Shown here: positions 5,331-9,508 of the stretch, piece after piece
Layout of the letters: each line of letters starts with the position of its first letter
How positions within the stretch are numbered: the first letter of the stretch is position 1
From: Escherichia coli
GTDB lineage: Bacteria > Pseudomonadota > Gammaproteobacteria > Enterobacterales > Enterobacteriaceae
Reading direction: 5' to 3' (one strand)
Assembly: GCF_003334335.1 (NCBI RefSeq)
Contig: NZ_QOWQ01000016.1
Length of the DNA: 64,000 nucleotides
Position numbers and translations under genes: made by a program
Notes under the pieces: model-generated
Told to the model about the DNA's origin: nothing
Databases searched by the model: none
Seen by the model: only the letters and a program-made list of their open reading frames with translations

Positions 5331-5463
5331 GTGAAAATGTCATTTTTGGCGTAATTACCCTTACTTTATGCATGGCCTTAACAAAGACATCATCTTTCCG
5401 TTGCAGATCTTCGCCCTTTCAAATAACGTACTTTACAACTTTCCCGAACAAGGAGTTGTGCCC

Positions 5464-5760
5464 GTGTTGTATGTTATTTACGCTCAAGACAAAGCTGATA
5501 GCCTCGAAAAACGCCTTTCCGTTCGTCCGGCACATTTAGCACGTTTACAGTTACTGCATGATGAAGGTCGTTTGTTGACAGCTGGTCCAATGCCAGCGGT
5601 AGACAGTAACGATCCAGGGGCTGCGGGATTTACTGGCTCAACCGTTATTGCTGAATTTGAATCGCTGGAAGCAGCTCAGGCCTGGGCCGATGCTGACCCG
5701 TACGTAGCGGCAGGAGTCTATGAACACGTTTCAGTGAAACCATTTAAGAAAGTGTTCTGA
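5464..5760 (+). CDS. yciI: YciI-like protein
   Basis: 98 aa from a GTG start ([25 protein letters not shown]...); ORF-track start at 5368 is an extension. Confidence 0.8.
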
Positions 5761-5810: not shown

Positions 5811-6059
5811 GGCCTTTCCTTATAGCCGGTCAGTGCATTCACCACCACAAGCAGATAATAACTTTATCTGTATTTCTTTATATGATGTGAGCATATTCAG
5901 GAAAAATGACCTTTCCTGAGGTACAGTTGCTCGCTCAAATCCTTTGATTACTGCGGATAAAGTCATCTACTATTGTTTAACACATTCACGCGCTGCATGT
6001 ATGTTCAGAAAATGTGCACGCTAAGATAATTAAACAAAATTGTGGTTACAGAGGTATCA

Positions 6060-7313
6060 GTGAGTCACTGGGCTACATTCAAACAAACAGCAACAAATTT
6101 ATGGGTGACCCTTCGGCACGACATTCTCGCGCTGGCCGTCTTTTTAAATGGATTGCTTATTTTTAAAACAATCTATGGTATGTCGGTCAATTTGCTTGAT
6201 ATTTTCCATATCAAAGCATTTTCAGAGTTGGATCTCTCCTTGCTGGCAAACGCCCCACTCTTTATGCTCGGCGTCTTTCTTGTCCTGAACTCCATTGGCT
6301 TACTGTTCCGGGCAAAGCTCGCATGGGCAATCAGTATCATTTTGTTGTTGATAGCGCTAATTTACACCCTGCATTTTTATCCCTGGCTGAAATTTAGTAT
6401 TGGATTTTGCATTTTTACGCTGGTGTTTTTGCTGATACTGCGCAAAGACTTCTCCCACAGTAGCGCCGCAGCCGGGACAATTTTTGCATTTATTAGTTTC
6501 ACGACATTACTGTTTTACTCAACCTACGGTGCGCTTTATTTAAGCGAAGGTTTTAATCCGCGAATAGAAAGTTTGATGACCGCGTTCTATTTTTCGATAG
6601 AAACCATGTCAACCGTCGGCTATGGCGATATTGTCCCTGTTTCTGAATCAGCACGATTGTTCACTATTTCGGTCATTATTTCCGGCATTACCGTTTTTGC
6701 CACATCTATGACCTCAATTTTTGGTCCGCTTATCCGCGGGGGATTCAACAAACTTGTAAAAGGAAACAATCATACAATGCATCGTAAAGATCATTTTATT
6801 GTTTGCGGACATTCGATTCTCGCCATCAATACGATCCTGCAACTGAATCAACGCGGACAAAACGTAACGGTTATCAGCAACTTGCCTGAAGATGATATCA
6901 AGCAACTTGAGCAACGCTTAGGCGATAATGCTGATGTTATCCCCGGTGACAGTAATGACAGTTCTGTATTAAAGAAAGCGGGAATCGATCGTTGCCGGGC
7001 CATTCTGGCGCTGAGTGATAACGATGCAGATAACGCGTTTGTTGTACTCTCGGCAAAAGATATGAGCAGTGATGTCAAAACAGTTCTCGCCGTCAGTGAT
7101 AGCAAAAACCTGAATAAGATTAAGATGGTACATCCGGATATCATTCTCTCACCGCAACTGTTTGGCAGCGAAATTCTGGCGCGAGTTTTAAATGGTGAAG
7201 AGATTAATAATGATATGCTCGTTTCAATGTTGTTGAACTCAGGTCATGGTATTTTCAGCGATAACGATGAACTAGAAACGAAAGCTGACAGTAAAGAATC
7301 GGCGCAAAAATAG
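6060..7313 (+). CDS. kch: Voltage-gated potassium channel Kch
   Basis: 417 aa from a GTG start (MSHWATFKQTATNLWV...); contains the K+ selectivity filter TVGYGD and a C-terminal RCK/TrkA-like domain. Confidence 0.9.
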   Translation: MSHWATFKQTATNLWVTLRHDILALAVFLNGLLIFKTIYGMSVNLLDIFHIKAFSELDLSLLANAPLFMLGVFLVLNSIGLLFRAKLAWAISIILLLIALIYTLHFYPWLKFSIGFCIFTLVFLLILRKDFSHSSAAAGTIFAFISFTTLLFYSTYGALYLSEGFNPRIESLMTAFYFSIETMSTVGYGDIVPVSESARLFTISVIISGITVFATSMTSIFGPLIRGGFNKLVKGNNHTMHRKDHFIVCGHSILAINTILQLNQRGQNVTVISNLPEDDIKQLEQRLGDNADVIPGDSNDSSVLKKAGIDRCRAILALSDNDADNAFVVLSAKDMSSDVKTVLAVSDSKNLNKIKMVHPDIILSPQLFGSEILARVLNGEEINNDMLVSMLLNSGHGIFSDNDELETKADSKESAQK

Positions 7314-7367
7314 AGTTTAAAGACGGAAGAGTAAACTTATTGGGCACCGCAATGGTGCCCAGTACAT

Positions 7368-7541
7368 TTAGATATTGTAGATCGCAAACAATAACGAGTT
7401 ACGCTGTTTGTTTAGAATGCACTTCCTGATGCTGTGGATACGCATATTTCGGCGCGATTGCCCCTCAAGCCAACGCGATTTACGTCGGCTAGCCTGACGC
7501 TGCATGCGCCAGCGCCCCACTTCCGTTCTACTCCGCTTCAT
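7368..7541 (-). CDS. yciY: Small basic protein, possibly YciY
   Basis: 57-aa Arg/Lys-rich ORF MKRSRTEVGRWRMQRQASRRK... between kch and clsA; identification is from memory of the K-12 small-protein annotation, and coding is not otherwise supported. Confidence 0.3.
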   Translation of the reverse strand: MKRSRTEVGRWRMQRQASRRKSRWLEGQSRRNMRIHSIRKCILNKQRNSLLFAIYNI

Positions 7542-7683
7542 GTTAACTACTCTATGCAATAACAGAATGGTCATTATACCCCCACCCCCGACGCTGACCA
7601 GTGCTTTTCCCGCGTTTTTATTTGCCAGATGAATCCATATGCGTAAACTCATAACAATGCGCTTTCAAAAGGATTTCTAATCT

Positions 7684-9508
<1,825 letters not shown>

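Follow-up and report, generated by a model that had tools for sequence, protein, structure and literature searches.

The DNA analysed here, hereafter the window, is a stretch of 64,000 nucleotides from Escherichia coli, in which positions 7314..7683 form a 370-nt spacer between kch (6042/6060..7313, plus strand) and clsA (7684..9144, plus strand). On the minus strand of this spacer lies the coding sequence (CDS) of yciY, which consists of 57 codons followed by a TAA stop (7368..7541, with the ATG at 7541..7539 and the TAA at 7370..7368), and whose translation is MKRSRTEVGRWRMQRQASRRKSRWLEGQSRRNMRIHSIRKCILNKQRNSLLFAIYNI. The ATG of yciY at 7541 (minus strand) and the start of clsA at 7684 (plus strand) are separated by 142 nt. 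A preliminary description of this DNA had placed a basic, arginine-rich open reading frame (ORF) of 57 codons at 7368-7541 on the minus strand of the kch-clsA spacer, and the coordinates, the strand, the length and the term arginine-rich are all correct. A mechanical six-frame translation gives a longer ORF of 94 aa in the same frame (7368..7652, minus strand, ATG at 7652). The mechanical ORFs of two neighbours also differ from the RefSeq annotation in their starts: that of kch begins with a GTG at 6042 (423 aa) versus 6060 in RefSeq when projected onto the window (417 aa), and that of yciI begins at 5368 (130 aa) versus a RefSeq protein of 98 aa (window 5464-5760).

Chance alone could give a frame of 57 codons, as many ORFs of 20-60 aa are listed nearby; the present one goes beyond chance because it is conserved across genera. 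In the following, we describe its identity, expression signals, coding signature and phylogenetic distribution, and discuss what its product might do.

Identity of the ORF

The spacer 7314-7683 is 100% identical to the corresponding DNA of E. coli K-12 MG1655 by megablast. Of the 5426 complete E. coli genomes searched, 5423 contain it, nearly always as one copy per genome; among the matches listed, the feature under the spacer is annotated as 'yciY: YciY family protein'. The remaining three genomes are without a match to the spacer, some genomes carry up to three copies, and the spacer additionally matches 13 places on plasmids. When positions 2501-2870 of the retrieved MG1655 stretch are set against 7314-7683 of the window, the RefSeq yciY CDS (WP_001309467.1; 2555-2728 of that locus) falls exactly on 7368-7541, on the same strand and between kch and cls. 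Furthermore, the 57-aa protein was matched by the NCBIfam model NF033701, 'YciY family protein' (yciY_fam), with 109.8 bits and E = 5.1e-32, against a curated cut-off of 30 bits; the model has 56 positions, and the alignment covers residues 1-55 of the window protein. Precomputed annotations likewise assign Pfam PF26518:YciY to all the homologues; a Pfam-A scan of the 94-aa ORF gave no match, but the Pfam release used predates PF26518.

Compared with YciY of E. coli K-12 (b4595; WP_001309467.1; NF033701, PF26518), the 57-aa sequence, its position, its orientation and the spacer DNA are all identical; there is no difference between the two, and they are the same gene. The window protein scores above the cut-off of the family model, is the orthologue of the K-12 protein, has the length and the motif of the family, and is encoded in the clsA context. 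The resemblance to K-12 YciY that the preliminary description had suggested is therefore borne out by the identity of the spacer, the exact mapping of the CDS and the NF033701 score, and both a match to annotated YciY and evidence of translation (see below) are at hand. We regard it as virtually certain that the window ORF is yciY with its 57-aa start. It follows from this identity that, as the finding of a genome scan, the ORF is nothing new: yciY has for years been an annotated gene of K-12, with published translation evidence and with NCBIfam and Pfam families of its own, although NF033701 is annotated as a 'hypothetical equivalog' only, with no assigned function.

Signals for transcription and translation

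A Shine-Dalgarno-like GAG (GAGT in E. coli) lies at 7550..7552 on the minus strand, 8 nt upstream of the yciY ATG, and is invariant in the nine Enterobacteriaceae genera compared. Further upstream, a putative -10 element of the yciY promoter, TATAAT (7573..7578, minus strand), ends 31 nt before the ATG and is invariant in all nine of these genera. The promoter scan pairs it, across a 16-nt spacer, with a -35-like hexamer TGGTCA (7595..7600, minus strand), the putative promoter having 10/12 matches in total; the hexamer is conserved in part only, as CTGGT, in the nine genera. In Rouxiella, Morganella and one metagenome relative, a TATAAT or TAAAAT is found 47-53 nt upstream of the ATG. On the plus strand, the same scan returned a putative clsA promoter with 9/12 matches (TTGCCA, 16 nt, TAAACT; 7622..7649), which would stand back-to-back with that of yciY, the two putative -35 elements being ~21 nt apart. 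Two conserved blocks in the alignment of the spacer correspond to the putative -10 of clsA (GAGTTTACGCA, as read on the strand of yciY) and to the clsA Shine-Dalgarno region (AAATCCTTT). Taken together, these patterns point to a yciY gene that would have its own sigma-70 promoter, back-to-back with the clsA promoter, and a GAG Shine-Dalgarno motif.

At the other end of the gene, a G+C-rich hairpin that can form on both strands (7338..7364) lies where kch and yciY converge, between their ends, with an 8-bp core stem (7341-7348 / 7354-7361) and a loop at 7349-7353. Its folding energy is -17.7 kcal/mol (z = -4.3) for the minus strand and -20.9 kcal/mol (z = -4.0) for the plus strand, and none of 200 shuffled sequences folded as well. 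Because its U-tract is weak on both strands, this hairpin escaped the consensus terminator scan. The hairpin is probably a bidirectional terminator common to kch and yciY.

Coding signature and choice of start codon

For the comparison of the locus, we retrieved it from Salmonella, Citrobacter, Enterobacter, Klebsiella, Cronobacter, Atlantibacter, Cedecea, Kluyvera and two Rouxiella, and the selection analysis was done on nine genera of the Enterobacteriaceae. The yciY frame is free of stops in 9/9 genera, whereas each of the other frames contains stops in the majority of genera. The yciY frame has a pS of 0.68 and a pN of 0.14, giving a pN/pS of 0.21 and a Jukes-Cantor dN/dS of ~0.09. Of the five other frames, four have a pN/pS of 1.3-2.0; antisense frame 1, with a pN/pS of 0.33, was rejected as coding, as it contains stops in 8/9 genera and has its third positions in common with the sense frame. 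The mean pairwise differences per site at the three codon positions are 0.18, 0.13 and 0.48, respectively, and the variable columns number 26, 20 and 51, so that the third position is about three times more variable than the others. Such a pattern of substitution indicates purifying selection on the protein rather than conserved non-coding DNA.

Translation of yciY in E. coli has been documented by tetracycline ribosome profiling (TetRP; Nakahigashi et al. 2016), which located an intergenic start at K-12 position 1306812, exactly the yciY ATG (PMC4909307). The ORF reported there (1306812-1306985, 57 aa, 'New protein(2014) yciY') has a product identical to MKRSRTEVGRWRMQRQASRRKSRWLEGQSRRNMRIHSIRKCILNKQRNSLLFAIYNI, and a chromosomal yciY-Venus fusion (construct IVP3) was expressed, its fluorescence being used as a positive control (PMC4909307). 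The ribosome-profiling evidence to which the preliminary description had looked is consequently already in print, with the same start and the same product. In the small-protein ribosome-profiling papers with a focus on <=50 aa, yciY is not mentioned in the text. A scan of 7200-7800 against Rfam at E <= 1 found no RNA family in the spacer; it returned CRISPR-DR35 at 7221-7256 (plus strand), inside the kch CDS, with 19.3 bits against a gathering threshold of 35 and E = 0.46, which we judged to be a chance match.

Two readings of these data compete with a 57-aa protein-coding gene. One holds that the ORF is incidental and the conserved element non-coding, either an sRNA or cis-regulatory DNA of clsA, in which divergent transcription modulates clsA and the peptide is irrelevant. 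The back-to-back position of the putative promoters and the conserved blocks in the spacer would suit it, as would the shortness of yciY and the fact that its protein is without demonstrated function. However, third positions are near-saturated while pN stays low, arginine is kept in 451 of 467 alignment cells at the arginine positions despite many synonymous changes, no Rfam family is matched in the spacer, and translation has been shown by experiment (PMC4909307); moreover, a regulatory side-effect of divergent transcription, which may well exist alongside, cannot account for the conservation of amino acids. We therefore hold this reading to be highly improbable, and consider it very nearly certain that yciY is a real protein-coding gene. 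That it is an independently expressed small gene under purifying selection throughout the Enterobacterales is strongly supported.

The other reading accepts a protein but starts it at the ATG at 7652, so that the real product would be the 94-aa protein that several automatic gene callers report; such versions of 93-96 aa have been called in Klebsiella, Trabulsiella and metagenomes, and in E. coli the 41 codons before the 57-aa ATG are indeed without a stop. This openness is not shared by the relatives. The number of in-frame codons upstream of the 57-aa ATG before a stop is 0 in Rouxiella sp. WC2420, 3 in Cedecea, 5 in R. badensis, 17 in Morganella, 18 in Atlantibacter, 25 in Salmonella and Citrobacter, and 26 in Cronobacter, rising to 36 in Enterobacter and Kluyvera, 40 in K. 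oxytoca, and 41 in E. coli and one metagenome relative; the frame is accordingly closed after 0-26 codons in seven genera. When the long gene calls are aligned, conservation is near-perfect from Met38 on and poor before it, and NF033701 aligns solely to residues 38-92 of the 94-aa ORF. In addition, the N-terminal extension (7542..7652, minus strand), which is not part of the gene, overlaps the 5' UTR and the putative promoter of yciY as well as the putative clsA promoter; it contains the invariant TATAAT, so that the likely transcript from this putative promoter would start downstream of the ATG of the 94-aa ORF. The start mapped by TetRP, finally, is the 57-aa ATG (PMC4909307). The suspicion voiced in the preliminary description, that the 94-aa ORF reaches too far upstream, is upheld by the variable upstream stops, the conservation boundary at the 57-aa Met, the extent of the family match and the TetRP start; the 94-aa reading is already essentially refuted, and we give it a negligible probability.

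Family and distribution

A word-indexed search with YciY returned 128 clusters at 90% identity, which are named 'YciY family protein' where they are named, apart from a few called 'hypothetical protein'; among their named sources are Citrobacter, Salmonella, Kluyvera, Enterobacter, Cronobacter, Klebsiella, Raoultella, Atlantibacter, Cedecea, Buttiauxella and Rouxiella. When 1.84 billion representatives were searched exhaustively with a profile, just 39 clusters at 50% identity came up, and the divergent ones among them carry names from Morganella, Providencia, Erwinia, Brenneria, Pectobacterium and Symbiopectobacterium. Because the 50% clusters are so few and the divergent ones are enterobacterial, the YciY family is, as judged from these searches, confined to the Enterobacterales, where it occurs in five families. 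One entry from outside this order, 'YciY family protein, partial [Listeria monocytogenes]' (P0043), comes from a contig of 252 nt and shares 79% identity with the E. coli protein; almost certainly, a Listeria assembly was contaminated here with enterobacterial DNA. A further match, P0146, is an odd sequence in itself, with 819 aa made up of ~15 tandem repeats of ~50 residues (…RLRMSRQSSYRSITQGGRPHNNHVGLLHRLLLTKRFATWDLAMSPFSNYSEPLIG…); its match to the YciY profile (E = 1e-5) extends over 13 profile positions only and is driven by the repeats, and we rejected it as spurious. YciY matched no family in PHROGs and gave no match in PADLOC, so that these searches give no hint of an origin in phages or defence systems.

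The gene can be disrupted. In E. coli C3728 (NZ_CP196347.1), a natural isolate from human faeces, an IS1A lies inside yciY (L016 1749-2622; window ~7368-7420), and the 5' fragment of the gene, which is missing the C-terminus, is annotated as a pseudogene; this truncation implies that yciY is dispensable in at least that isolate.

With regard to the genomic context, a clsA of 486 aa is divergent from yciY in the window and in all 13 distinct non-E. coli loci examined, which cover the Enterobacteriaceae, Rouxiella (Yersiniaceae), Morganella (Morganellaceae) and one metagenome relative; this divergence is an empirical feature of these loci and not a curated criterion of the family. The spacer between clsA and yciY measures 142-144 nt in the Enterobacteriaceae and 191-253 nt elsewhere, and was never interrupted in the loci examined. 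The 3' flank of yciY varies: the next gene is yciI in Salmonella, Citrobacter and Atlantibacter, while E. coli has kch there and Kluyvera a phage integrase (L011 2945-4138); Cedecea has a Mu-like transposase 1.8 kb downstream (L009), Enterobacter LysE and CAT genes, and K. oxytoca an OYE reductase. In the two Rouxiella loci, a YnfU-like zinc-ribbon gene of 54-56 aa (PF23499; L003 2746-2910, L010 2764-2934) lies immediately downstream of yciY in convergent orientation. From these arrangements, the downstream side of yciY looks like a recurrent insertion site, and the presence of kch at this position looks like an insertion in the Escherichia lineage.

Properties of the YciY protein

YciY has 57 residues, a mass of 7.1 kDa, a pI of 12.0 and a net charge of +15, with 13 Arg and 4 Lys versus 2 acidic residues. 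Its GRAVY is -1.14 and its maximum 19-residue Kyte-Doolittle hydropathy is 0.09; by this measure of hydropathy there is no membrane segment. AlphaFold2, run with an alignment of 36 sequences, models one uninterrupted helix over residues 5-56 with a mean pLDDT of 91, although a confident single helix is common for short peptides and is no proof of a fold in isolation. Basic residues give a resultant of 0.26 on the helical wheel and hydrophobic residues one of 0.06, which means that the predicted helix has no hydrophobic face; its arginines are spread all round, with a partial stripe formed by R5-R12-R23-R30-R34. YciY is accordingly predicted to be a soluble polycationic helix.

Among the 36 homologues, the 13 Arg positions hold Arg 451 times, Lys twice and another residue 14 times, and the net charge stays between +13 and +17. 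M1, S4, E7, V8, R10, W11, R12, M13, R15, Q16, R30 and I35 are invariant in the alignment, and the window protein has all of them; it also carries the family motif M-[KR]-x-S-[RK]-x-E-V-x-R-W-R-M-x-R-Q ... R-W-L-E-x-Q-S-R within the usual length of ~56-60 aa. Rare codons (CGA twice, CGG, AGA and AGG) encode five of the 13 Arg, which suggests low expression. Sequence and profile searches of the PDB found no chain at E < 0.1; the one resemblance obtained, to mitochondrial uS14, matched in its rRNA-contacting stretch with E = 0.19-0.66, was rejected as non-significant and probably compositional.

Possible functions

Our literature search found no report of a phenotype, a partner or a localisation for YciY, and the following rests on the properties described above. 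Strict conservation of Arg over Lys on a helix is a hallmark of arginine-rich RNA-binding motifs (ARMs), such as those of lambda N, HIV Rev and Tat. The arginine-rich helix of YciY may bind a polyanion; a helix embraced by a polyanion is favoured over a helix lying on a membrane surface because Arg is strictly preferred to Lys, the charge is distributed all round and a hydrophobic face is absent, and on these grounds we are inclined to believe, with some reserve, that polyanion binding is how the protein acts. Among the polyanions, RNA, i.e. rRNA/the ribosome or an mRNA, would be the most probable partner, a suggestion that we make tentatively and at somewhat less than even odds; the preference for Arg would also fit the phosphate head groups of anionic lipids. 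In that case YciY would be present in small amounts, with an accessory or regulatory task, and would not be a structural protein of stoichiometric abundance. For the overall explanation, that the ORF is yciY, a real gene whose product is an Arg-rich helix that binds a polyanion, we estimate a probability of about 0.8.

The unbroken pairing with clsA suggests a different function, in which the polycationic Arg/Trp helix binds cardiolipin/phosphatidylglycerol or ClsA itself and senses or modulates the synthesis of cardiolipin. Arg/Trp peptides bind anionic membranes, and YciY has two conserved Trp besides its many Arg. The genomic context is also suggestive, as clsA is divergent in all the loci examined, its spacer is fixed in the Enterobacteriaceae while the other flank of yciY varies, and the putative back-to-back promoters would allow co-regulation. 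The helix itself, however, is poorly suited to a membrane surface: it has no amphipathic face (hydrophobic resultant 0.06, maximum muH 0.54), its mean hydrophobicity is ~-0.8 over the Arg-rich two-thirds, and it contains no membrane segment. The adjacency, moreover, may simply be inherited, since vertical descent has conserved the block yciU-clsA-yciY-yciI-tonB, and two promoters packed into a short spacer are hard to separate. The literature search returned no link between yciY and clsA, the clsA papers being silent on yciY or a mapped shared promoter. We consider a lipid- or ClsA-directed role of this kind quite unlikely compared with the binding of a polyanion such as RNA. A broader and more speculative proposal, that YciY is an Enterobacterales-specific regulator coupled physically and transcriptionally to cardiolipin synthase, with a helix that either binds anionic lipid or ClsA and so tunes the synthesis of cardiolipin, or binds a specific RNA or the ribosome as a new accessory factor, seems to us unlikely as well, if a little less so; if true, a protein that is present in five enterobacterial families and was never separated from clsA in the loci examined would gain its first function. 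The divergent pairing with clsA and the strict conservation of Arg thus offer two hypotheses to research on small proteins and on cardiolipin. Independently of function, yciY can serve as a worked example of a small ORF validated purely on sequence grounds, by frame-specific purifying selection, by conserved -10 and Shine-Dalgarno elements and by variable upstream stops, which settle the choice of start codon.

Comparison with known small proteins

Small membrane proteins and type I toxins are the usual class for enterobacterial proteins of <60 aa, and those of E. coli resemble YciY in their similar size and in an intergenic site that older annotation overlooked. We nevertheless rejected YciY as a small inner-membrane protein or type I toxin, on account of its lack of a hydrophobic segment, of a match to an antisense RNA family, and of a match in PADLOC or PHROGs.

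A likeness in composition is offered by the small basic ribosome-associated proteins and the extensions of ribosomal proteins (e.g. bL34, bL36, Sra/RpsV and the C-terminus of ArfA), which share with YciY a length of ~40-70 aa, a very high pI and a nucleic-acid-binding composition. Unlike ribosomal proteins, YciY has no significant match to a solved structure, uses rare Arg codons and occurs in the Enterobacterales only. YciY is unlikely to be a core ribosomal protein, because it finds no match in the numerous solved structures of the E. coli ribosome and 5/13 of its Arg codons are rare; its narrow distribution and the IS1-disrupted allele also led us to discard that assignment.

The ARM helices of lambda N, HIV Rev and Tat are, like YciY, short, highly basic and helix-forming, and retain Arg over Lys. 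YciY differs from them in its greater length, with a predicted helix of 52 residues, and in a C-terminal third that is less basic and more hydrophobic, and the likeness is one of composition, with no claim of homology. An ARM-like feature of YciY is the placing of Trp within its Arg clusters (RWRMxRQ and RWLE).
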